64,000 nt of DNA from an uncultured Gemmatimonadales bacterium (GCA_963821525.1 CAWGED010000019.1:768001-832000), one strand, 5' to 3'. Shown: positions 43,851 to 56,700, numbered from the stretch's first letter. Made by a program: numbers and translations. Notes: generated by a model not told the origin, from the letters alone.

Positions 43851-44978
43851 TCAAGCCACCATAAGCAGAACGAACAGCATCAACCCCAGGGAATGGAAAA
43901 CCGAATCAAACACCCCGCTCAATAACGTCCCGATCAGGATCTGCTCGTCCTGGGTCAGCTCATCTCCGCTGGCCTTTTCCCAAACCGGAAAACCTCCGTC
44001 ATCTCTCGTCGCCGTCGCGAAGATCTGGCCATTACCCCTTAGGGTAAGTTCGGTCGTGTACAGGCGAGAGCCACCATCGAAATCCTGGAATCCTGCCAGG
44101 CGCACCGACTTCTTACCCTTGTTCAGCAGGACGTCAATCGCAGTGTGCGAGTTCTCTGAGCTGGGATTGAAGGTGTCGACGAAGTCGAAATGCAGACTCT
44201 CCACCGGCCCGACCAGGTCCAGCTTCACGCTTTGGTTCCGGGAGTTGACCTGCGTGAAATGCAGATTGAAGTCCATCGGGTCTGCACCCCTCGAGAGAAT
44301 TCCCTCGGCCACCAGGTCGAACCCGTCGCTGATCGGGACCCCATTATCCGGCAGGGTGACGGTGTAGTCCGCGTAGGTCTCCTGAGCCATTCCGGTCACC
44401 CGGACGCTGACCTGGAACGTCTCCGCGTCACTCAGGTCCTCCACGTCCAGCGTTCCCACCTGAGTCCCGGGATCCAAGGTCCCTGCCGCCACGTCGTACA
44501 GGACGAAGCGCACGCCGTGGGCCGGCCCCTGGTCGGAACCGTTGTCTTCGTATTGCCGGGTAAGGGGATTGAACTCGTAGACGTTGCCATAGAACCGGTC
44601 GTCGATCGCGTCGCTCATGGTGCGGAATTGGCGGCCGCCCGGATGCGGGAGACCGTGGGCCCATTTCGCGAACGGCCGGCTCGACGGGTCCCCCGGCGCC
44701 GTCGTCACTAGGGATCCGACCTGAAGCACCGCGACCAACTGCGACCCGTGACCTCGGGAAAGCACGTCCAGCGCGCCCGCCCCAAACTCCGCAACATTTT
44801 CCACCCCGACCAGCGGGCCGTTGGTGAGCGTCCCCACCATGTCCTTCATGCTGGTCACCAACCCCTGCGGGTCGTCGATCGCGGCCTCACTCGGCCCACT
44901 ACTATCCCCGCAGGCGCCGAGGAGGGACACCAGCGCAAGCCCGGATGCCGGCAAGAGAGGCCGTAACATGAGACTCAT
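43851..44978 (-). CDS. Hypothetical lipoprotein (paralog of 45128-46270)
   Basis: LLGAC lipobox; shared GP..GVRFVLYD block. Confidence 0.8.
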   Translation of the reverse strand: MSLMLRPLLPASGLALVSLLGACGDSSGPSEAAIDDPQGLVTSMKDMVGTLTNGPLVGVENVAEFGAGALDVLSRGHGSQLVAVLQVGSLVTTAPGDPSSRPFAKWAHGLPHPGGRQFRTMSDAIDDRFYGNVYEFNPLTRQYEDNGSDQGPAHGVRFVLYDVAAGTLDPGTQVGTLDVEDLSDAETFQVSVRVTGMAQETYADYTVTLPDNGVPISDGFDLVAEGILSRGADPMDFNLHFTQVNSRNQSVKLDLVGPVESLHFDFVDTFNPSSENSHTAIDVLLNKGKKSVRLAGFQDFDGGSRLYTTELTLRGNGQIFATATRDDGGFPVWEKASGDELTQDEQILIGTLLSGVFDSVFHSLGLMLFVLLMVA

Positions 44979-45127
44979 GATGGATCCAAGGTTCGACGGA
45001 GTTCCGTCTTTGTCCAGACGAGGACCGACCTCCGTCCTGCACATCGAAACGACTGGCCTTCAAGCCAAACCGGCCCGGATCAATTGACCCGGGCCGGTTC
45101 TCCCTACGAGACATCCCTGCTGGCTGG

Positions 45128-46270
45128 TTACGCCGTTACCATCAGCAGCGCGAAGTAGACCAGCGCAAAGACGTTCAACGTTGCACCGAACACCGCGGCA
45201 GCCACCGCCCCGATGAGGTTTCCCTCGGCGTTGGTGAGCGGCTGGCCGTTTTCCTTGACCCACACCGGGTCGCCGGACCCGTCATCAGTCGTTGCCCGGG
45301 CGAAGATCCTGCCGTTAGCTCGGATGGTGAAATCGGTGGCGTAATTGCCTGAGCCACCATCGTAGTCCTGGGTTCCGTTTACCCGGAGCGTTTCGTTGTG
45401 CCCCTGCAGAGTTATATCCAGACCGAGGTGGGAATCGTCGGTCTGTGGATCCTCGGTGGTCTCCACAGTCAGACCCATGCTGGCGTTGGGGCCAGTCAGG
45501 CCGACGGTCACCACCTGCGCGTCTGGACTCGTCTGCGTCAGATGCATCTCGAAGGCCACCTGACCGTCGCCCAGCGTTCCCTCTGAGAGCAGGTCGAAGG
45601 TCTGCGCCACCGGGTCGAAGGTGTCGGGCAGGGTGACCGAGTAGTCTGCGTAGGTGACCGTGCCGTTGAGGTCGGTCACCACGATGCCAACCTCGGACTT
45701 GGTCGGATCGCTCTGGTCCAGCACGTCGAGGTAGCCGACCGGCGTGTTGGGATCGATCGAACCGCCCACCACGTCATAGAGCACGAAGCGGACACCGTTG
45801 GCCGGACCGGCGTTGGTGCCGTCGTCCTCGTATTGCTGGGTCGTCGGATTGTAGGCGAAGACGGTGGTGTAGTACGAATCGTCAATCGCATCACCCATCG
45901 TCACGATGTGGCCATCTGAGCCAATCGGATGGGTGGGGCGGACTCCCGCCTCGAGCCGCGGAATCTTGAAGTACCCGTGGCCGGAGAGGACGATCGTGGG
46001 TCGGGCGCCGAGGATCGCCTGCATCCCCGCGCCGTGGCCGCGAGAGAGCGCATCCAGCGCGGAGCCGCCGAAGTTCCCGATGTTGCCCACCCCGATCAGG
46101 GGACCGGCGCTCAGCGTACCGACCAGGCCATTCACGTCGGTCTGCAGGCCCTGCGGATCGTTGATGCTGCCCGAGCCGCTCGGCCCACTCGAGTCGCTGC
46201 TGCACGAGGCCAGAGCTACCACGCTGGCCAGAGCCAGCGTCGCCAGGCCGGACCGCCGAATCACCTTCAT
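45128..46270 (-). CDS. Hypothetical lipoprotein (paralog of 43851-44978)
   Basis: ALASC lipobox; beta-rich; hydrophobic C-terminus. Confidence 0.8.
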   Translation of the reverse strand: MKVIRRSGLATLALASVVALASCSSDSSGPSGSGSINDPQGLQTDVNGLVGTLSAGPLIGVGNIGNFGGSALDALSRGHGAGMQAILGARPTIVLSGHGYFKIPRLEAGVRPTHPIGSDGHIVTMGDAIDDSYYTTVFAYNPTTQQYEDDGTNAGPANGVRFVLYDVVGGSIDPNTPVGYLDVLDQSDPTKSEVGIVVTDLNGTVTYADYSVTLPDTFDPVAQTFDLLSEGTLGDGQVAFEMHLTQTSPDAQVVTVGLTGPNASMGLTVETTEDPQTDDSHLGLDITLQGHNETLRVNGTQDYDGGSGNYATDFTIRANGRIFARATTDDGSGDPVWVKENGQPLTNAEGNLIGAVAAAVFGATLNVFALVYFALLMVTA

Positions 46271-46325
46271 GGCACAACCCTCCCTGTTCAGGTTCGGTGG
46301 AGTCCAGTCTTTCCGGACCAGTTTT

Positions 46326-47186
46326 CTATTCAGTAAACGTGACGGTGGGATTATTCCCGCAGCCGGCGAAAACGACGTGGAAAATGCCGGTCGTGTTCGC
46401 GACGGTGCCTTGCAGATCCACTTGACCAGTCGAAATCGGCTGGAACGAGCTGCAGCCGGGATCGAACTCGAGCGCGACTGGCGTCGTGATCGTCAACTCG
46501 AAGTCCTCGGTGGAGCGCCGCCAGTCGAGCGTGCCGACGATGGTGAGGCTCCCCGCTTGCAGGGGACCGAGAATGTTGATGAAGTTGCCCTGATCAGGGG
46601 TAAAGAGGACGGTCCCGAGCAGGTGGATGTGGGCAACGGCCTTCCCTGGCCTGGCCCGATCGGTAAAATCGCTGAACATGATCGTGGCACTGTCCGCATC
46701 GCCGCTCCGGTTGGCGACCCCGTTGCGGACGGCGGTTTCGGTCATGCTCGAGGCGCCGTCCAGGAAGGTCCAGGTCAGCTGGGTGAAAGTGAGATCGTAG
46801 TCAGTCGTCGTAATGACCCCGCCGTCGTGCAGACCGAGGATGCCGGTTACCCCCACGCTGCCGCCGCTGGCCACGTTGCTGTGACAGGGGGGATCGGTGA
46901 AGGTGAGGTTGGCGTCATCCGGAATGTCGTCGTGGTCCGCGTCGTCGGTGTTGGACGGAACCGGACATCCGGCGGCTGAATTGAACCCGAAGGGAAGTCC
47001 CGGCTGATCCAGGGTGATGAGGCCCAGTGCCAGGCTCACCCCTTCAGCGAGAGAGGAACCTATTTCGACACGCAGGCTGGCTGCCGGGCCACCGCCCCCA
47101 CCACTGACGCCGGACAGGCCGGAGCCGCTGCCGCAGGCACCTAAGAGGACGAGGGGCAGAAGAACAGCCAGACGGGAACTAGGCAT
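46326..47186 (-). CDS. Hypothetical lipoprotein with DxDxDxIPD Ca-binding-like motif
   Basis: LLGAC lipobox; DADHDDIPDD; several Cys. Confidence 0.75.
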   Translation of the reverse strand: MPSSRLAVLLPLVLLGACGSGSGLSGVSGGGGGPAASLRVEIGSSLAEGVSLALGLITLDQPGLPFGFNSAAGCPVPSNTDDADHDDIPDDANLTFTDPPCHSNVASGGSVGVTGILGLHDGGVITTTDYDLTFTQLTWTFLDGASSMTETAVRNGVANRSGDADSATIMFSDFTDRARPGKAVAHIHLLGTVLFTPDQGNFINILGPLQAGSLTIVGTLDWRRSTEDFELTITTPVALEFDPGCSSFQPISTGQVDLQGTVANTTGIFHVVFAGCGNNPTVTFTE

Positions 47187-47467: not shown

Positions 47468-50400
47468 ATGCCTCCGCATTTCTACCTCAAGTGTCTGGGC
47501 AATCCGGAGCTCCGGTCCCCCTCGGGAGATCCGGTCAAGTTTCGTACCCGTAAGCCGCTCGCCCTCCTGCTCTATCTCGCGGTCGAACCTCGGCATCCAC
47601 ACCGGCGTGACCGGCTGGCCGACTTGTTGTGGCCTAAAGGCTCAGCCCTGGAGGGACGTCATTCGGTGGCCACAGCACTCTCCGTACTGCGCGGCAAGCT
47701 GGGTGCCCAGGCGCTGGAAACCACTCGCGACCTGGTGCGATTCACCTTCGGCCAGCTCGAACTCGACCTGGACCGGCTCAGCCGCGGCGATGTGCTCGGC
47801 GACGAGTTCACCCCGGCCCTGGATGTCGGAGGGTTTCTCGAAGATTTCGACGTCGCCGACGCCCCTGAATTTCAGATGTGGCGCGATCAGCAGTGCGCGA
47901 GGCTCCTCCCCTCGTTGCGCGAAGCCTTCATCCGCTTGATGGACCGGTGCCGCCGCACCGGAGACTTCCGCCGCATCGAGGTCCTGGCCGACCGGCTGCA
48001 GACGCTCGACGACCTCAGTGAAGACGCGATCCGGGCCAAGATGGAGGCCCGGGCCCTTGATGGAGACCGCCTCGGTGCGCTGCGACTCTTCGAGCAGTGG
48101 CGGCTTCGGCTGAGCGACGAGCTGGGCGCCCAACCCTCGGCGCTGATTGATGGGATGGCCATCCGGCTGCGCCGGCGCGGTTGGGAGCAGACCCGCGCGG
48201 TGCCCCTGCCTCCGGTTTTCACCGACCGGTGGAAAGGTCGCCGCTTCGTCGGTCGCAGCGTCCAGTACCAGGCGCTCTACGAGGTATGGGAGCGCACCAT
48301 GCGAAGTCAGGCTCGCCATGCCCTCGTTCTGGGCGACTCCGGGATCGGCAAAAGCACTCTGGTTGAGCGCCTGGTCACCGCCGCTGGCATCGAGGGCGCC
48401 GCGTCTACCCGAGTCCAGTGCTACGAGCTCGAGCGGGACATTCCCTACACGGCGATCGGGGGACTGGTTCGCGGCCTGCTGGACCGGCCCGAGATCGCCG
48501 GCACACCACCCGAGTGGCTGGCCGAGCTTGCGGCACTGGTGCCGGACCTCAAGGCGAGGTTCACTGGGCTCCCGCCGGTACCGGAAACCCAGGGTGAGAC
48601 CGCCCGGATCCGTCTCGCCGAGGCGATACACCAGCTCCTGATGGCGGTGGCGGAGGAGCACCCGGTCATTGTCGTGGTGGACGACGTGCACCTGGCGGAC
48701 GATGTGAGCGTGGCCGTGCTCCACCTGCTCATGCGCCGGACCCAGAGCCAGCGGATCATGGTGGTGCTCACCGGCTCGACCCGCCGAGTTGAGCCGGGCA
48801 CCGTCGGCGGCGCGCCTGCGGGAAAACCAGCGCGGGCTGGGACTGGAGATCATCGAGCTCCCGCACCTCACACCGGACGAGAGCGCCGAACTCGTCGAGG
48901 GATTGGCCCAGGCGGCGGAGACCGAGCCCAGCCTCACGGTTCGCCGGGCCCTGGTGCGCGCCGCCGCCGGCATTCCGATGGTGCTGGAACTCCTCTTCCG
49001 CGACTGGCAAACCAACGGCGAACGCTGCCTGGCCCTCTCGGTGGGTGCCATGACGGCCGATGCGATCGAGGCGGGTACCGAGGGCGCCTATCGCCAGATC
49101 CTGGACCGGGTCGTCGGAGACCTCGACGACGTGTCGCGCGCGGTGCTCAACCTCGCCTCCATCCTCGGCGCCCGCTTGAACGATCTCCCGATGTACCAGC
49201 TGGTAGACCTCTCGGTTGCCCAGACGATGGCGGGGATGGCGCGGCTCACCGAGCTGCGGCTGCTCCGGGACGGCGGTCACGCGCTCGACTTTCGGAACGA
49301 AGTGATCCGGGCTCACGCCTACTTCGGCGTCCCGTCGCCGCATCGGACGGCGTTGCATGGCCGGATAGCGGATCTTCTCCTGGCGAGTGACGGGCGAGGG
49401 GAGTCGGTGCCTGGGCTGGAGATAGCGTGGCACTGCGTGCGGGCGGGGCGGACCGCGCAATCGACCCCGTACCTCCTCAGAGGCGCCAGAGAGGCGATGC
49501 AAAGCGGTGCCCCCTTCGAAACCGAGCAGGCCCTCAGCTCCGCGATGGGCTGGCTTCCGATTCGTCATCACACTGAAGCCCTACTGCTGTTTGCCGAGAG
49601 CCTTCAGGAGCAGGGCCGGTGGAAAGAGTCTCGCAAAGTACTGGGTGGGGAGCTGGACCCTCTAGATGACGAGACGCGGGAAATGAAGTTCGTACTGAGT
49701 GTGAGAGCCGCGAATTTCGAAGGAGTCCCTCAAGCGGAGGCCGAAAGTCTCCGCAAGATACTGAGGGATGTGATGACCGGAGGAAAGACGCCTCGCTCAA
49801 GGACAAGAGCTGCCTATGTCTGCAGCCAGATACTGTTCAGTTCCGCACAAAGCGCTGAATGCCTCGAGCTTTACAACTGCTGCAAAGAGATCCCGACGAG
49901 TGGACTATCTATCAGTGAGATGTCGGAGTTCTTGCTCGCGAAGACAAGTCTTCGCATACATGGCCCATGTAGAGAAGGAGTACTCAGAGGTCAGAGCTAG
50001 GCTGGAGCTGCAAAGGTTGGAACACGACAGGTTGGGAATAGCTAATCAAGCAGCCGCTTTAACAGAAAACCATCTCGGCTGCGCGGATTCGGCCGAAGGT
50101 CGATACGCCAATGCCCTTCCTTACTTCGAACGATCCCTGCGACTCGCTGAAAGGTTGGGGGACGAGAGATTGATGTCCCAGATCGCGTCCAACCTGGCGT
50201 TAGCGAATGGACGACTTGGTCGCTACGATGAGCAGCTAAGGTGGGCTGGATTCGGCCTCGCCCAAGGTGAGTGTGAACGGCATAGATATAAGCTGGTCTA
50301 CTATCGGTCTTGGGCGTTGGCGATGCTTGGAGAGGCGACTCAAGGCCATCTCCTCAGTAATTGAGGAAGCAGCGAGGCCGACCAATCGCACTCCAAACTG

Positions 50401-50791
50401 GCTTCCACCTGTAAGACAGATCTTGTTTGCAGACGTCAAGTACATCGCAGGGGCGAGAAAAGAGGCTAGCCGGGACGCCGCCGAGGTACTGCGATCTAAC
50501 CGACGAACTGGATTCCACGAAGCGTTTGCGGGTGTGTACGCCAGGTGGTTGGCAAAGCTTTCGGGCGCTGGTTTGGACCTGGAGGAGGGCTACGGGGAGT
50601 TACAGTCTCTTAGCTCAATGCTCTACCATTTCGATGCAGTCGATCGAGCTGAAATTCTTAGCGGCAGGTTGTACCTGGAGCGGCTGCGTGGAGAGAATGG
50701 GAAATCCACCGAAACCGAACTTCACGCTGCCCTTAGCTGCTTACCAGAGGCCGTTGCCCGTCAGATTTCACTACTTGATATGCCAACCTGA
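47468..50791 (+). CDS. SARP/BTAD-AAA(STAND)-TPR transcriptional regulator (frameshifts near 48775, 49945, 50330)
   Basis: KPLALLLYLA..RRDRLADLLWP, BTAD helices, FVGR, Walker A GDSGIGKST, VDDVHLAD, GIPMVL, TPR-like C-terminus. Confidence 0.85.
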
Positions 50792-50794
50792 ACT

Positions 50795-52214
50795 CTAGGC
50801 GCCTAGCCAGGAGCGCCTAGCTCTGCGTGTCGCACCCGTTCCCCAACTGACTCGCTTGGATCCTCCCTCACGCGGTACGGCTTTCTCCCCACCGTCTGAG
50901 GCCTGTGAAATTTCTGCCATCACACGCCGAATCACGACGGAGTTAACCACCAAATCAACAAGATTGGGATCGAATTGTGTTCCGCGGCACTTCTGAAGCT
51001 CCCCAACAACCGCTTCCACGGTCAGCTTCTTCCTGTATGGCCGATCCGTAGTCATCGCATCGGTCGTATCAGAAATCATGATGATTCGGGCACCGAGCGG
51101 GATCGCATCGCCTGCCATTCCATCAGGATATCCGTGCCCATCCCAGCGTTCATGGTGACTCCGTACAGCATCATGAATGGCGCCGCGGAAGCTCGAGATA
51201 ATCGCGACCAACTCGGCGCTCTTCGCGGAATGCGTCTGCAGTAGAGCCATTTCCTCTGGGGTGAGCTTTGAATCCTTCCGAAGAAGAGGTGCGAATTCCT
51301 CATGGATCTTGCCTACGTCATGAAGGACGGCAGCTGTATAGACCTCCTCTACCTGGTCGGAGGTCATCTTGGCTTCCTGAGCAATAGCCTTCGAGAGCGT
51401 AGCGACGCGGATTGAGTGGCCCGATGTGTATGGGTCCCGTGCTTCGATTGCCTTGACCATTAGGTCGAGAAGTTCGCGCCCGCTGTTCTGGAGCTTCCTA
51501 TACAATCCGTAGACGTGACGGATAACAATTACAGGGATCGTAACGCTGATCAAGACCCAATGGACCGAATCCCAGGAGGTGTTCTGACTTCCTGTAGAAA
51601 AACGCCACAACCAGAGCTATTGCGCTGGCCCCAAGATCATACCCTAAGACGCCCTTCGCATTCAGATTCCAGACCTCACCAAACCTCCTACCAGAACTGA
51701 TAGCAACGGCAGCGTTGACGGCGATTGTATTGACCGCGAAATATGTTGCCTCCAAAGACAAAAAACAGTCCGAGATCTCTTTGAACATCGGCAGACTGAA
51801 CTCCGACATTCAGCGCGAGATACGCCGGAGGGAGGCCACCGCCAAGTGCCTGATAGAGAAGGACACCGAGGACGACTGAGAGGAATCTCTGTGCGGTGTT
51901 GAAGACGATCTTTATGCCTGGACGCCTGTTTGTCCACTCGACTGGCGGCGGTAGATGCTGCGGCTACAAACCCTCCCCAAAAGCCTCCAAACAGGACCGC
52001 CGGCTGCAAGGTGGATAATGAAGGATGCCGAGCCCTTTGCTTCGACTCGAAGGGGATTGCCTGAAAGGTCAATTAGATAGGCGACAACCACAAAGCTGCA
52101 AAGAGCCCAAAGCCCAGGATTGGGCGAGACGTGACTGGCCAAGCCGCGGCACCCGAGAGCGGCCGCAAGGACAGATCGAGCCAACGTAAATCTGAACGTT
52201 TTCGACTCATTCAT
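50795..52214 (-). CDS. Membrane-anchored HD-GYP phosphodiesterase (several frameshifts in the N-terminal TM region)
   Basis: EARDPYTSGHS, LHDVGK, HHERWDGHGYPDG, DAMTTDRPYR, GTQFDP; hydrophobic N-terminal fragments. Confidence 0.88.
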
Positions 52215-52261
52215 GATAGCAGACTAGCAAGGGCCCCGGCCGTCCTACATCCAACTGGAGC

Positions 52262-52345
52262 TTATGTCCAATCGGCGCCTTCACCCAAAGAAGTCACGCG
52301 GGCGAAGAACTCAATGACTTTCGCGAGCAAGCTGATGTGCAACAT
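52262..52345 (-). CDS. Unannotated 27-aa peptide MLHISLLAKVIEFFARVTSLGEGADWT (putative signalling peptide precursor)
   Basis: Manual translation; AAGGAG RBS 6 nt upstream of ATG; TAA stop 47 bp before the HD-GYP start. Confidence 0.7.
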   Translation of the reverse strand: MLHISLLAKVIEFFARVTSLGEGADWT

Positions 52346-52627
52346 GAGCGTCTCCTTCGAACGAGTAGATAAGGAACCCTCGGGAAGGGGCACGCCTCGC
52401 TATGGCGCACCTGACGCTCCGCTCTCAGTTGTCCGCTCGTCTCCGCTGATCCTGACCAGCATCCCTGCACCAACGAAGACCGGGGCCGCCTGCCGTTTTT
52501 TCCTTTCTGAAAGAAGGGTGGTCCCGCTCACACCTTCATTCCTGCATTCCTGCGTTTGGACGCCGACGGGCCCGGCATCCCTTGAACGACGAGATGCGGC
52601 GGGCCCGCTGAATTTTGTTGCTACGAC

Positions 52628-53362
52628 CTAACTGGGGCGCCGGGCCTCCGCCCAGCGGTTGGTCGCGTCGAGCACCGCGAATACTGCGGCGCGCTCCGCG
52701 CTCTCTTTGATCTCGGCCGTACCCATGAGCAATACCGCTTCACGTCCACCGAGCCCCTGCACCGCCACCATCACGAACTCGCGGTCGAACGCCTCGACGA
52801 TCTTGGACCCTTCGAGCGCCACCGAGTTGTCCGCCAGCAGCTGGTCGAGCGCCGAAACCGCCGCCCGGGCCGCCGCCTCTACCCGGCTCCGCGGGGTGTC
52901 CGAGCTTTCCTCTTCGGCCACCGCCCTGGTCTCCCCGAATCCCAGCGTCACCTGGATCGAAATCCGGTGCGGCCGCTTGCCCGGTGCCACGGTGAGCGAG
53001 TCGAACAGCGCGGCGCGCCGCATCGAGCGCTCCCGTACCGCGTCTCTTTCCAGCGCCTCGATGGGCCGGACTTCGGCGGTCTGGGCAATGCTGATTTTGC
53101 GATGATCTACCTTGAGCCCGAGCTGGGCCAGGAGAGCGGACTCTATATTGCGGACCAGCTGCTTCGCTTGCAAGCCCGACTGGGCCAGAATATGGACCTC
53201 GCTGACCTCCCCGAGCGGGGTGGTCACCACCCGGGCCGAAAGCACCCCTTCCAGGCTGGTGAGCAGTTGCTCAGCCCGGCGAACCCCCCACGGATCCGGC
53301 GGGCTCTCCAACGGAGCCGAACGCAGGGAGGCATCGGGTTGGCGGATCGGGGTCGAGGACAA
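52628..53362 (-). CDS. Hypothetical two-domain protein (VDHRKISIAQ motif)
   Basis: Clean ORF with RBS and TTG start; EVHILA..KQLVRNIESALLA..VDHRKISIAQ. Confidence 0.8.
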   Translation of the reverse strand: MSSTPIRQPDASLRSAPLESPPDPWGVRRAEQLLTSLEGVLSARVVTTPLGEVSEVHILAQSGLQAKQLVRNIESALLAQLGLKVDHRKISIAQTAEVRPIEALERDAVRERSMRRAALFDSLTVAPGKRPHRISIQVTLGFGETRAVAEEESSDTPRSRVEAAARAAVSALDQLLADNSVALEGSKIVEAFDREFVMVAVQGLGGREAVLLMGTAEIKESAERAAVFAVLDATNRWAEARRPS

Positions 53363-53387
53363 GATCCAGCTATCCTTTCGTGCGGTT

Positions 53388-55067
53388 TCAGGCGACCGCG
53401 TTACGTCCGTTGGCCTTCGCGTGGTACAGTGCGCGATCGGCCAGCACAAGTAAATCCCCCTCGTGGGGTCGCCTCACGTCGTATTCGGCGACGCCGATAC
53501 TGGCAGTCACCAGCCCGACCGGGTAGCCCAGCCGGCGCCCCACTCCTTCGATCCCGGCCCGGATCGCCTCGCCGACCCGATTGGCTCCCGCCAGGTCGGT
53601 CCGGTTGAGCAGGACCACGAACTCATCACCGCCGTAGCGTGCCGCCAGGTCCGAGGCGCGAATCGCGCTCTTCAGCTCGGTCGCCACCGCACGAAGCACC
53701 GCGTTCCCCGCCTCGTGCCCGTACTGATCGTTCACCAGCTTGAAGTGGTCCAGATCGATGAACAGGACCGCGAACCCCTCCAGGCTGCGCTTGCTTCGCT
53801 CGACCTCGTAACTCAGCCGGTCGTTCAGAACTTTGTACGCGGCGAGCCCGGTCAGGGTATCCACCGCCGCATCGCGCTGCGCCTCTTCGACCCGCCGAGC
53901 CTGGTAGGGTACACACTGCTTGAGTGATGCCCGGCCCATGGCCGCCGCCTGGGCGAACGCGGCGCAGGTCTCGAATCCGCAGGCCCGGCAGTCCCACGGC
54001 TTGCCGTGAGGACCCAGGCCGATCGCGGCGAGCACTTCATCCACCTGGGCCGTATCGGCCCGCACCAGTCGCGGCTGGATCTCGAAGATGGCTCCGTAGC
54101 TCGCGACTACTGCGTCGTCCACCACCGGCTGGCGGCTCCGCGGAGGCTCGCTGTTCTCCACGACCGAACGGCGCCAGAACAGCTCTTCACGCGGGCCCGA
54201 GAGCGGGTGATCCAGCCATCCCTCGTGGGCCAGCAGATCGACGAACCCCAGGTCGAGCCGGTCTATCACGACCGCGCGGGACAGACCGCGCAGCTCACCC
54301 AATCCCCGCAGCTTCCGGAACCGCTTGCTCGAGTGCCGAGATTCTTCCAGCAGCGAGAGCGGTATCCCGCCCGCCAGGCTCAGGTAGCGACGATGTTCCG
54401 CGGGGACCCGGGCGTAGTGTGCGGGCTGCGCGAGGGGGCTCACACCGCGGAGCCGGAACAGCTGCTCCAGGTCCTGGAAGGTGATCGCCGAATCGAGCTC
54501 CTCGCGCCCGGCAGGCGGGCACACACCGGCGTATACCACCTCCAGCCCTTCGCCCCACTGCGCCCGCAGGTACCTCGCCTCCGCCAGCGCGGGCAACGTC
54601 ACCGGCGCGAGATAGGGAACCAGTTCCGGATAGTCTCTCCGGATCGCCTCCACCACCACCGGGTCGGTGGAGCGGATCATGGTGCCCCAGTTTTCCTCAC
54701 GCCACAGCCTCAAGTACTCCGAGGCGACCAACTCGTCTCCCACTACCCCGCGGGTCACCAGACGGAACCCGGCGGAGTAGCATGCGTTCACGATTTGCTC
54801 CGGCGCCGCCGGGTAGAAGTACGCCACGGCCTCCGGACTCAGGATCAGCGCGCCGTCGCCTCTCGTGGCGACCGCGATGGCGCGACCCAATTCACCAGTG
54901 ACTTCAATCGCGTGATGCGGGCAAGCGGGAACGCAGAGCCCGCACCGAATGCAGCTCTCGTCTACGATGCGCACCAGTGGATCCTGCACCTCGACGGCGC
55001 CGGTCGGGCACACGCGTACGCAGGCCAGGCACGTAACGCAGGCCGCCGGGTCAATCGAGAAAATCAC
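53388..55067 (-). CDS. Diguanylate cyclase with 2[4Fe-4S], degenerate [FeFe]-hydrogenase-like and FeS domains
   Basis: Two CxxCxxCxxxCP motifs; YPELVPYLAPV, DSAITFQDL; CRACGFETC..C; RASD I-site and GGDEF. Confidence 0.9.
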   Translation of the reverse strand: MIFSIDPAACVTCLACVRVCPTGAVEVQDPLVRIVDESCIRCGLCVPACPHHAIEVTGELGRAIAVATRGDGALILSPEAVAYFYPAAPEQIVNACYSAGFRLVTRGVVGDELVASEYLRLWREENWGTMIRSTDPVVVEAIRRDYPELVPYLAPVTLPALAEARYLRAQWGEGLEVVYAGVCPPAGREELDSAITFQDLEQLFRLRGVSPLAQPAHYARVPAEHRRYLSLAGGIPLSLLEESRHSSKRFRKLRGLGELRGLSRAVVIDRLDLGFVDLLAHEGWLDHPLSGPREELFWRRSVVENSEPPRSRQPVVDDAVVASYGAIFEIQPRLVRADTAQVDEVLAAIGLGPHGKPWDCRACGFETCAAFAQAAAMGRASLKQCVPYQARRVEEAQRDAAVDTLTGLAAYKVLNDRLSYEVERSKRSLEGFAVLFIDLDHFKLVNDQYGHEAGNAVLRAVATELKSAIRASDLAARYGGDEFVVLLNRTDLAGANRVGEAIRAGIEGVGRRLGYPVGLVTASIGVAEYDVRRPHEGDLLVLADRALYHAKANGRNAVA

Positions 55068-55189: not shown

Positions 55190-56700
55190 CTACTCCAAAT
55201 TGTAAGCCTTGATTTTTCGGTACAGCGTGCGTTCGCCTATGCCCAGAACCTCTGCCGCTTTACGGCGATTTCCTCGGAACTGAGTAAGCGCCGCAGCGAT
55301 AGCGGCTTTTTCGACCTCGGCCATGGTCATCCCCGGCCGGTAGACGACTTCCCCCTGTTCTTCCGGCTCAGATTCCGGCAAGACGTCTGCCACGGAGCTG
55401 CTTTGGCCAAGTTCAATAACCTGAACACGTTGCGGCCTATCGTCCAAACGGCGCCTCATTTCCTCGACCTGGAGGCGTAAGTCCATGAGACTCCGTAGGA
55501 TAAACTCCAATTCCTGGGTTGGCAGATCGCGACCTGTTGCTCCAATCCGCACGGGAAGCATCCGGCCAGCCCCCTCCAGGATGTCGGCTGGGATGTCGGA
55601 TGCCCGGATCTCCCGACCCGGGGCGAGCACCACCATGGACTCGATGAGATTCCGCAGCTGGCGCACGTTGCCGGGCCAGGGGCCTTCGATCAGGAGGCTC
55701 ATCGCCTCGGGAGTCATGCCGCGGAAGGGACGGTCGTGGGCCCGGGAGAACTCGCGGATGAAGCGTTTGACCAGAACCGGGATGTCGCTCGCGCCGCTCG
55801 CGCAGCGGCGGGAGATAGATGTTCAGGACATTGAGCCGGTAATACAGATCGTCCCGGAATTCCCCCAGTGCTACGAGCTCCTTGAGGCTCCGGTTGGTGG
55901 CGGCGAGCACCCGAACGTCTACCTTGATCGGCTGAACGCCTCCCACCCGAAAGAATGTCCGCGTCTCCAGCACCCGCAGCAGCTTCACCTGCACGGTGGC
56001 CGAGATCTCGCTGATCTCGTCGAGGAAGATGGTGCCAGTGTCGGCCAGCTCGAAGCGACCCAGCCTGCGCTCCGCCGCACCGGTGAAGGCGCCCTTTTCG
56101 TGGCCGAACAGCTCCGACTCAAGCAGGGTCTCGGGTAGTGCGGCGCAGTTGACCGGAATGAACGGCTTCCCTCGCCGGGGCGAGAGATCGTGGATCGCCT
56201 TCGCGACCAGTTCCTTCCCGGTGCCGGATTCTCCCTGGATCAGTACGGTGCTGGAGACCGGAGCCATCTGTTCGATCCGGACCAGCAACTCCTGGATGGC
56301 GGCACTCTCTCCCGATATGCCGGTACGCTGCTGCAGTTGGCGCCGGTCCACCAGGCGCTCGATGAGTGCCACGGTATCGGGCGGGTTGATCGGCTTGACC
56401 GCGACTTCGGTGACGTCGAGACCCAGTCCCTCTCGGTCAGTCTGGGCGGGATCGGTAGGCTCGAGCAGCGCCAGGGTCGAGACCTCCGCGTCCCGCGCCT
56501 GTGCCACCAGCTGCTTGGGCCTGGGAGTCGTGGACCGCACCGGTGAGCACCAGCAAGTCGGGGTGCTCCTTCCGCAATGCTCCTCGCCCATCGTCCATCG
56601 GCGAGATCATCACAGTGCGATACTGGGCAGCCTCGAGCGCGGCGTTGAGTCGTACCGCCGATTCGAGGTCGTCCATGGTGATGAGAATCTTGGAGGCCAT
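55190..56700 (-). CDS. Sigma54-dependent Fis-family regulator with receiver-like N-terminus (frameshifts)
   Basis: [56 protein letters not shown]. Confidence 0.92.

Follow-up and report, generated by a model that had tools for sequence, protein, structure and literature searches.

A conserved module of Gemmatimonadota and Bacillota places an RNA-enclosed peptide gene beside a MASE9-HD-GYP gene

The staphylococcal agr and Bacillus ComQXPA systems encode a precursor with an amphipathic leader and a short variable signal beside a multi-pass membrane sensor. Leader peptides such as TnaC and ErmCL and the RNA targets of CsrA, TRAP, and ANTAR proteins are structured-RNA switches, in which CsrA sites take the form of repeated ANGGA words. 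To our knowledge, no peptide pheromone works by way of an HD-GYP phosphodiesterase, and none was found in the literature searched. Here we analyze 64,000 nucleotides (nt) of DNA from an uncultured Gemmatimonadales bacterium (GCA_963821525.1, CAWGED010000019.1:768001-832000), referred to as the window, in which a 27-codon peptide open reading frame (ORF) wrapped in a structured RNA lies between the gene for a protein with the motif VDHRKISIAQ (the VDHRKISIAQ protein) and the gene for a MASE9-type membrane domain fused to HD-GYP. Judged from gene order, these four elements are the core of a module that recurs in Gemmatimonadota and Bacillota. The module is conserved and apparently undescribed in print (no description was found in the literature searched, subscription journals lying outside its coverage); it appears to work most like a pherotype cassette and to belong to no known family.

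The likeness to agr and ComQXPA lies in a precursor with a leader and a short variable signal, whose gene adjoins that of a membrane sensor within a hypervariable block flanked by conserved DNA. The locus differs from them in that the output of the sensor is HD-GYP rather than a histidine kinase, in that it holds neither AgrB nor ComQ and no thiolactone cysteine, and in that the ORF is wrapped in structured RNA and is found both in a diderm phylum and in Bacillota. With leader-peptide and protein-bound RNA switches it shares a structured RNA that hides a Shine-Dalgarno (SD) sequence, short repeats, and a short ORF before the regulated gene. Compared with CsrA targets, the invariant core of the repeats is AGCG rather than ANGGA, and GGA is often GAA or GAG; a CsrA gene is present in the genome.

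The MASE9-HD-GYP proteins of Thermotoga maritima (TM1467) and Streptomyces venezuelae (HdgA and HdgB) have the same fusion of a MASE9-type membrane domain to HD-GYP, but here an RNA-enclosed peptide gene, a LeuA-like protein, and strain-specific types are attached to it. The ligand of MASE9 has not been identified and is proposed to bind inside the membrane (10.1101/2021.11.05.467447). HdgA, the one member that has been studied, is membrane bound and poorly expressed and gave no developmental phenotype, and its authors suspected that an activating signal was missing (PMC6205966). Neither paper uses the word "peptide" in its main text. The raiA-motif RNA ModT is abundant, conserved, and linked to c-di-GMP (cyclic di-GMP), but it is a different RNA, and the paper describing it mentions neither HD-GYP nor an ORF (PMC11706538).

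The features of the locus are given below in window coordinates. All five genes were found where a sequence-only reading of this DNA had placed them, with the HD-GYP and SARP genes convergent and 3 bp between their stop codons. Named homologs also assign the organism to the Gemmatimonadales.

53388 to 55067, minus strand: gene for an Fe-S/pseudo-hydrogenase GGDEF cyclase (Pfam)
52628 to 53362, minus strand: gene for the VDHRKISIAQ protein (244 amino acids [aa]; start taken from a 244-aa database protein)
52478 to 52510, minus strand: 5' arm of helix P0 (core 52493 to 52478, with a purine-rich tract ahead of the core)
52417 to 52447, minus strand: three AGCG(G/A)A repeats (at 52447, 52437, and 52423)
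52346 to 52419, minus strand: three-way junction of helices P1, P2, and P3, which pairs the SD of the peptide ORF and the bases immediately 5' of its start codon
52262 to 52345, minus strand: 27-codon peptide ORF, preceded by an SD
52227 to 52241, minus strand: 3' arm of helix P0, with about 12 nt between its end and the HD-GYP start
50795 to 52214, minus strand: gene for a MASE9-type membrane domain and HD-GYP (HD_5 in Pfam; 470 aa when unbroken)
47468 to 50791, plus strand: SARP/BTAD-STAND ATPase-TPR gene (Pfam; about 1110 aa when unbroken)
49600 to 52280, no strand: low-GC hypervariable block covering the peptide tail, MASE9-HD-GYP, and the TPR half of the SARP gene

The sequence-only reading had counted the cyclase and the TPR regulator as parts of one system with the other three genes. 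A survey of gene neighborhoods upheld the synteny and the short ORF but not the place of those two genes, leaving a core narrower than had been proposed. We tallied 100 wide Gemmatimonadota loci, a biased sample that was picked through matches to HD-GYP, the VDHRKISIAQ protein, or the RNA; 98 carried the VDHRKISIAQ protein, with HD-GYP behind it in 78 of the 83 with room. Distant classes keep the VDHRKISIAQ protein, RNA, peptide, and HD-GYP, and SARP was found in none of the six such loci scanned. Among the 30 best Bacillota loci of the VDHRKISIAQ protein, the 23 with HD-GYP all had the peptide and 22 had the repeat, while the 7 without HD-GYP had no peptide (0/7) and a single repeat in 2 cases. 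By these counts, the peptide, the RNA motif, and HD-GYP occur together. Neither SARP nor the cyclase was present in 20 Bacillota stretches (17 of 13 to 15 kb and 3 shorter), and a DUF5317 gene followed HD-GYP in all 5 Bacillota loci tested. The VDHRKISIAQ family was found in 116 of 151 genomes of the phylum and in 53 of 121 genomes of the Bacillota phylum (that of a Syntrophomonadaceae genome), and the RNA model matched 59 of the 71 genomes of the window's own family. A scan of the genome collection with the short repeat pattern alone returned 120 mostly unrelated stretches, one of which (L075) led to the Bacillota loci; no VDHRKISIAQ protein homolog was found in 4 of the 5 genomes probed from that scan. 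By eye, the Bacillota loci L358 to L377 often lie between an hpf/raiA-like gene and secA, and four of them (L359, L362, L363, and L377) carry a second HD-GYP gene in tandem, as with HdgA/HdgB.

The conserved structured RNA, about 270 nt long, encloses the peptide ORF and had been overlooked in the sequence-only reading. In the P1/P2/P3 junction, aligned in 24 sequences, 92.4% of cells were paired and 10 of 21 pairs were changed on both sides (0 of 500 shuffles as high), and RNAalifold gave the same three-way junction unprompted. In 41 loci outside the model, 94.8% of cells were paired and 12 of 20 pairs were changed on both sides, in an alignment that was fitted to the RNA model and so leans towards it. 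Most relatives have a stronger P3 than the window. The AGCG(G/A)A repeat columns are near-invariant, and the repeats are also present in the Bacillota loci; the third repeat overlaps P1, and a fourth AGCG sits in the P2 loop. Helix P0 pairs a stretch lying about 150 nt ahead of the peptide start with another immediately after the stop. In 28 of 31 loci, the duplex formed by the locus's own P0 arms beat 95 or more of 100 shuffles. The mean was -45.2 kcal/mol for own pairs versus -35.0 kcal/mol for noncognate pairs, and the 311 nt of the window folded with a z score of -2.0, with P0 present in the fold. Rfam, whose models include the c-di-GMP-I/II riboswitches and the raiA motif, gave no match over the RNA in the window (E values up to 5) or in 10 Bacillota loci (E values up to 1). 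The RNA model was built without family f2 and found 1 of 31 there, though f2 loci carry a related motif.

Two other roles for the RNA and its repeats were considered. The RNA model found a single strong site in the genome (E = 3e-24; next, 0.04), and for this reason an RNA regulon was rejected; a second repeat cluster, at C5:977372, proved to be a palindromic element ahead of a clpB-like gene. The repeats are unlikely to be DNA sites for the SARP protein, because they lie within paired RNA, vary in spacing, and persist where SARP is absent. As side observations, the region around that second cluster (G000:C5:977250-977400, L378) is a long imperfect palindrome with GCGGAC/GTCCGC repeats that resembles a repetitive extragenic palindrome, with a similar cluster at C6:16936, and four loci (L051, L055, L056, and L034) have a U-rich or pyrimidine tract after the P0 3' arm, terminator-like, with its 5' half 200 nt upstream.

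In soil metatranscriptomes, four of six runs held a contig confined to the RNA, with depths of 387 (X3), 224 (X15), 102 (X8), and 41 (X6). Contigs on neighboring genes had depths of about 2 to 6, and the RNA contigs were 15 to 100 times deeper in these four runs. Three of the deep contigs start within about 7 nt of the P0 5' arm, and that of X15 (274 nt) extends beyond the GEG codons of the peptide into a further tail type. Over the variable block there were only scattered shallow pieces, which prove nothing. The contigs give a weak hint that the RNA is a discrete, abundant transcript; the hint is no stronger because contig depth pools strains and cannot rank genes.

The 27-codon ORF had been taken for a gene from the sequence of the window, and it proved to be one: it is kept across loci and is under purifying selection. 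In a set of 30 HD-GYP loci, window included, a short ORF with a tryptophan near its end was present in all 29 that had upstream DNA. Under a strict filter, the peptide ORF was found in 67 of 80 related loci, compared with 0 on the reverse strand and 0.2 expected in shuffles. The ratio of nonsynonymous to synonymous change (pN/pS) was 0.28 over 37 pairs picked at at least 65% protein identity, a choice that biases the value low, and 69 pairs picked on DNA identity had 421, 294, and 694 differences at codon positions 1, 2, and 3. The window peptide consists of an amphipathic leader, GEG, and a variable four-residue tail with tryptophan, and this anatomy is constant over loci: a hydrophobic or amphipathic leader, a small-residue motif (GEG, AEG, or ADG in Gemmatimonadota and AGGA in Bacillota), and a tail of four to six residues with a tryptophan that is at least 90% conserved (59 rows). 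Genus g47 has I, L, or F in its place, which fits a hydrophobic anchor better than tryptophan sensing. The Bacillota peptides resemble signal peptides that end in the small-residue motif ahead of a short tail. No maturase of the AgrB or ComQ kind was found in the window or between the mapped genes of related loci, the remaining genome not having been searched.

The gene downstream of the peptide encodes an enzyme predicted, from its intact motifs, to break down c-di-GMP. Among 71 orthologs, the HD pair was present in 67, HHExxxGxGYP in 71, GHSxRV in 71, and DxxDAMTxxRxYR in 65, and these motifs are also found in the C-terminal frame of the window. The Pfam model MASE9 (PF20972, cutoff 24.3) scored above its cutoff in 3 of 6 family orthologs, with the other 3 at 19.8 to 23.6 bits, and in 2 of 2 Bacillota orthologs; there was no match at an E value of 1e-4 for L226 or for L252, the closest unbroken relative of the window. 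These scores suggest that the membrane domain belongs to MASE9 or lies near it. Among solved structures, nothing matched MASE9 below an E value of 0.07, and folate ECF S-components, at 0.2 to 0.4, were not significant. When MASE9 of the relative L270 was cofolded with its own 34-aa peptide, the score was 0.38, compared with 0.00 for the best of three controls; runs agreed in at least 98% of contacts, and the partner had a predicted local distance difference test (pLDDT) value of at least 69. Of 157 solved pairs, 116 reach the mark used for cofolds, as do 2 of 215 mismatched pairs, but only 18 of the 157 reach it with a score of 0.60 or less, and so do both mismatches. Coprediction of the peptide with its candidate receptors, which had been proposed along with the sequence-only reading, is thus weakly supportive of binding in the case of the MASE9 run. 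In the distant classes, a B12-binding radical SAM gene lies directly after MASE9-HD-GYP in 3 of 3 loci tested (L226:8286-9641, L228:8579-9982, and L229:5315-6673) and could encode a peptide-modifying or downstream enzyme. Many Gemmatimonadota HD-GYP starts seem to have no SD, judged by eye and uncounted.

Together with the end of the peptide, the membrane domain lies in the hypervariable block (about 52280 to 49600), which has a GC content of 0.50 to 0.59 versus about 0.65 in its flanks. DNA identity to same-genus genomes was 55 to 84% within the block for 3 of 4 genomes and mostly 82 to 99% outside it; for L250 the values were 56 to 84% and 90 to 100%. The block begins at the last four codons of the peptide, right after GEG, and the leader is identical within the genus. 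GC content at third codon positions was lower in MASE9 than in the VDHRKISIAQ protein in 68 of 68 Gemmatimonadota loci. The pair L250 and L252, whose tails differ, is 100% identical in the VDHRKISIAQ protein and 99% identical just before TPR, with 61% identity in the N-half of MASE9, 76% in its C-half, 91% in the catalytic domain, and 44 to 48% in TPR. Mean identities within genera (10 to 21 pairs) were 88% for the VDHRKISIAQ protein, 84% for the catalytic domain, 67% for STAND, 63 and 56% for the MASE9 halves, and 40% for TPR.

The divergence of the MASE9 N-half is linked to that of the tail. Among within-genus pairs at least 85% identical in the VDHRKISIAQ protein, which are not independent of one another, the MASE9 N-half was 80 to 96% identical in same-tail pairs (n = 5) and 38 to 76% identical in different-tail pairs (n = 25), and in two pairs a one-residue tail change went with 56 to 57% identity in MASE9. 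One genome, G003, was tried as a pair that would separate MASE9 from TPR and failed, being of the window's own type (TPR, 93 to 94%). The sharpest cassette swap was observed between L399 and L400, which are 98% identical in the VDHRKISIAQ protein and 93% identical in STAND but only 42% identical in the MASE9 N-half and 36% identical in TPR; the peptides of these two loci did not pass the peptide filter.

The VDHRKISIAQ protein matched no Pfam or NCBIfam family. Its AlphaFold model (pLDDT, 92) has an N-terminal alpha-beta-beta-alpha-beta domain and a C-terminal domain like the regulatory domain of LeuA and citramalate synthase (CMS). The top Foldseek matches were LeuA (E = 4e-5), and the predicted C-terminal domain has the (beta-beta-beta-alpha)2 allosteric fold of LeuA, with a Z score of 9.3 against the regulatory domain of LiCMS. 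At the level of sequence, LeuA_dimer of Pfam matched only 1 of 75 family members (E = 0.002), a search against solved structures gave nothing below an E value of 0.5, and an ESM Atlas search returned unnamed clusters only. Since the N-domain matches several unrelated small folds at Z scores of 7 to 9 (the CDF C-terminal domain, BolA, and acyl-CoA-ligase subdomains), the suggestion that the protein binds RNA comes only from its position ahead of the repeats, and we regard it as a candidate ligand-sensing binder of the RNA repeats. Compared with KH domains, the family consensus has no GxxG. The protein may also have a role of its own, because it persists in seven Bacillota loci that lack the RNA, the peptide, and HD-GYP (L343, L344, L348, L349, L352, L355, and L357), where the next gene is, by eye, secA-like or spoVS-like. 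A stand-alone paralog of the LeuA-like domain (G000:C19:500610-501032, L247) is common across the family and has no RNA or peptide behind it. Some family f1 genomes carry an HTH_17/MerR-like plus receiver gene between the VDHRKISIAQ protein and the RNA (L044:8043-8690, L045:8056-8688, L050:9590-10276, L048, and L063), with AGCGG-like words in the leader.

The RNA structure, the coding ORF, the gene order common to two phyla, and the joint divergence of the tail and the MASE9 N-half are all drawn from sequence, and on this basis we propose, with about even confidence, that a strain-specific peptide tail is read by MASE9, in the manner of agr, and switches c-di-GMP breakdown. The sequence-only reading had named the membrane domain of HD-GYP, the TPR domain, or both as readers of the peptide; MASE9 is the better candidate, owing to the tail-linked divergence, the weak cofold, and its presence in every lineage, and TPR is not part of the core. 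In the proposed mechanism, the ends of the RNA would pair around the ORF and hide the peptide SD, keeping translation off by default. The VDHRKISIAQ protein would bind the AGCG(G/A)A repeats and open the junction when a small ligand occupies its LeuA-like domain; this is the weakest step and a tentative one, which we hold to be more doubtful than the reading of the tail. The amphipathic or signal-like leader would carry the peptide to the membrane, where the four to six residues after the small-residue motif would be released or presented, and MASE9 would bind this tail and switch the phosphodiesterase, in either direction. Each strain type would thereby tune c-di-GMP breakdown to its own peptide. 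In Gemmatimonadetes, the SARP-STAND-TPR protein would be added as the probable transcriptional arm and, in some families, the Fe-S cyclase as an opposing source of c-di-GMP. It is unlikely, if conceivable, that the whole amounts to a peptide language into c-di-GMP spoken across phyla, in which a silenced pheromone gene is kept within an abundant RNA paired at its ends, an RNA-binding protein of a new family senses a metabolite and unlocks the gene, the released tail with its tryptophan is the long-sought MASE9 ligand, and soil Gemmatimonadota swap the tail, sensor, and TPR half as pherotype cassettes to tell kin from neighbors.

If tail reading by MASE9 holds true, it would provide a widespread orphan sensor with a concrete, synthesizable ligand candidate for which natural cognate and noncognate pairs exist, and it would mean that Gemmatimonadota, a phylum abundant in soil of which hardly any members are cultured, have a peptide signal that differs by strain type. 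The proposal is testable, since the same core is found in Bacillota relatives that can be cultured. The RNA is absent from Rfam, and the VDHRKISIAQ protein from the families of both Pfam and NCBIfam.

Several observations weigh against tail reading by MASE9. The cofold falls in the weak class and was run on a relative with alignments that we built ourselves. RNA binding by the VDHRKISIAQ protein has the status of a candidate, the fold of its N-domain being common. The locus holds no gene for processing or export. Two metatranscriptomes (X2, depth of 4.7; X17, depth of 3.8) show no deep RNA contig, and the depths of the other four, pooled over strains, cannot rank genes. The tail and the MASE9 N-half are only about 30 to 60 nt apart, so that recombination would carry both along whether or not they bind. 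Between genera, MASE9 identity is no higher when the two variable tail residues are shared, and convergence of MASE9 among same-tail loci of different genera was rejected (a difference of 0.8 points; 489 of 2,000 permutations as high). The window and L252 differ by one tail residue, but their MASE9 identity is 84 to 97%. Lastly, TPR was 52 and 63% identical in two same-tail pairs versus 27 to 56% in 16 different-tail pairs, by which the TPR half still qualifies as a candidate receptor.

MgrB and SafA are small membrane regulatory subunits that act with PhoQ, and the peptide could likewise stay whole in the membrane as a small regulatory subunit of MASE9-HD-GYP, not diffusible, with a tail that coevolves as an interface. 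The peptide is hydrophobic or amphipathic throughout, the locus offers no protease or exporter, the weak cofold was obtained with the full-length peptide, and the link between tail and MASE9 is explained equally well. We nevertheless consider a resident subunit quite unlikely: it does not readily account for the several tail types among strains with flanks 98 to 100% identical, and the Bacillota peptides look like signal peptides with a short tail.

A second alternative is that the RNA and its ORF form a leader switch in cis, in which translating ribosomes melt P0 and so allow translation of, or read-through into, HD-GYP, the peptide being incidental. P0 closes about 12 nt before the HD-GYP start, P1 and P3 hide the peptide SD, no more than about 90 nt separate the peptide stop from the HD-GYP start, and deep leader contigs with shallow downstream cover would also fit an attenuated leader. 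The peptide is, however, under purifying selection and has the same order of leader, motif, and tail tryptophan in two phyla, g47 has I, L, or F in place of the tryptophan, and a cis leader alone does not predict the tail-linked divergence of MASE9. As a full account we find it quite improbable; a cis effect on HD-GYP translation may well exist alongside peptide signaling.

The TPR domain of the SARP-STAND protein could instead be the peptide receptor, as in RRNPP systems, with HD-GYP as a coregulated passenger. TPR is the fastest-diverging part within genera (mean of 40% versus 88% for the VDHRKISIAQ protein, 21 pairs), lies within the same variable block, is somewhat more alike in the two same-tail pairs just cited, and belongs to a gene that adjoins the module in 63 of 72 Gemmatimonadota loci with room. 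Against this, the regulator is absent from the 20 Bacillota and six distant-class loci scanned that keep the peptide and MASE9, and RRNPP-like peptide binding therefore cannot be the ancestral function. In addition, L250 and G001 have a tail core in common and agree in 96% of 67 MASE9 residues, yet their TPR identity is just 52%, and the architecture is AfsR-like rather than RRNPP. A TPR receptor thus seems distinctly improbable. Finally, it is scarcely credible that the RNA is the mRNA of a type I toxin, a small hydrophobic peptide silenced by end-to-end pairing between unrelated genes: hok/aapA-type toxin mRNAs likewise hide the SD, pair over long range between their 5' and 3' ends, and carry a short hydrophobic ORF, but the RNA here is single copy in the genome and always tied to MASE9-HD-GYP, it has no Rfam match, its peptide has no conserved cationic tail, and no antisense antitoxin turned up, although no search was aimed at one.

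The two genes outside the core resemble known families in architecture. AfsR of Streptomyces is a SARP-ATPase-TPR protein, and RRNPP proteins lack BTAD and STAND domains. The SARP gene encodes Trans_reg_C, BTAD, AAA_16, and TPR domains (Pfam), the architecture of AfsR, with a hypervariable TPR half. Like RRNPP systems and AfsR/AfsS, the locus places a TPR regulator next to a small peptide gene. It differs from RRNPP proteins, which have a helix-turn-helix domain or three-helix bundle and no NTPase, in its BTAD and STAND ATPase domains, and from AfsR/AfsS in that the repeats lie inside an RNA rather than a promoter and that the regulator is missing in Bacillota and the distant classes.

HydS-type sensory [FeFe]-hydrogenase-like proteins have a ferredoxin, a hydrogenase large-subunit fold, and an FeS domain before the output domain. 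The cyclase has the same order, with two [4Fe-4S] ferredoxin clusters, a degenerate [FeFe]-hydrogenase large-subunit fold, and an FeS domain, and differs in its output, GGDEF, whose motif is intact and has an RxxD I-site just upstream. Its cysteines lie at 10 to 20, 39 to 49, 96, 183, and 360 to 385. As only two of them (96 and 183) fall between the ferredoxin and FeS clusters, the three H-cluster cysteine motifs cannot be complete, and on its sequence the protein is not an [FeFe] hydrogenase; against TIGR04105 it scored 77.9 bits, with a cutoff of 450. The cyclase adjoined the module in 25 of the 47 Gemmatimonadota loci that included upstream DNA and was absent there in the other 22, as it was in 20 of 20 Bacillota loci. 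A redox-sensing cyclase as part of the system was therefore not borne out, and redox coupling is a lineage add-on. Of the 71 genomes in the window's family, 66 have the cyclase, compared with 0/2 in f3, 0/3 in f11, and 0/3 in f12.

In the window assembly, the HD-GYP and SARP genes each fall into several frames. The short-read relative L252, 94.8% identical to the window at the DNA level over the aligned stretch, has a single open frame for the HD-GYP gene and another for the TPR half of the SARP gene, and its differences from the window are mostly extra single bases in the window. The HD-GYP gene is unbroken in both L250 and L252, the SARP gene is one frame of 1,123 codons in the same-genus G001, and the adjoining sigma-54 regulator is also split in the window assembly. 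Because the frames are open in L252, the window has extra single bases, and the sigma-54 regulator is split too, the breaks are most likely long-read errors. The sigma70-like promoter placed ahead of the operon in the sequence-only reading exists as a sequence (TTGACA-17-CATATT at 55140-55112), but with one such site found versus 1.6 expected in shuffles it is no better than chance. The sigma-54 (NtrC-like) regulator occupies window positions 55190 to 56700, frameshifted near 55770, and in almost every Gemmatimonadales locus it precedes the module, behind argF, gcvT, and moaB. On the other side, positions 43851 to 47186 hold three co-oriented genes for predicted lipoproteins, two of them paralogous (43851-45044 and 45128-46270) and the third without a Pfam match. 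The SARP gene is divergent from these three genes, which could be its targets.

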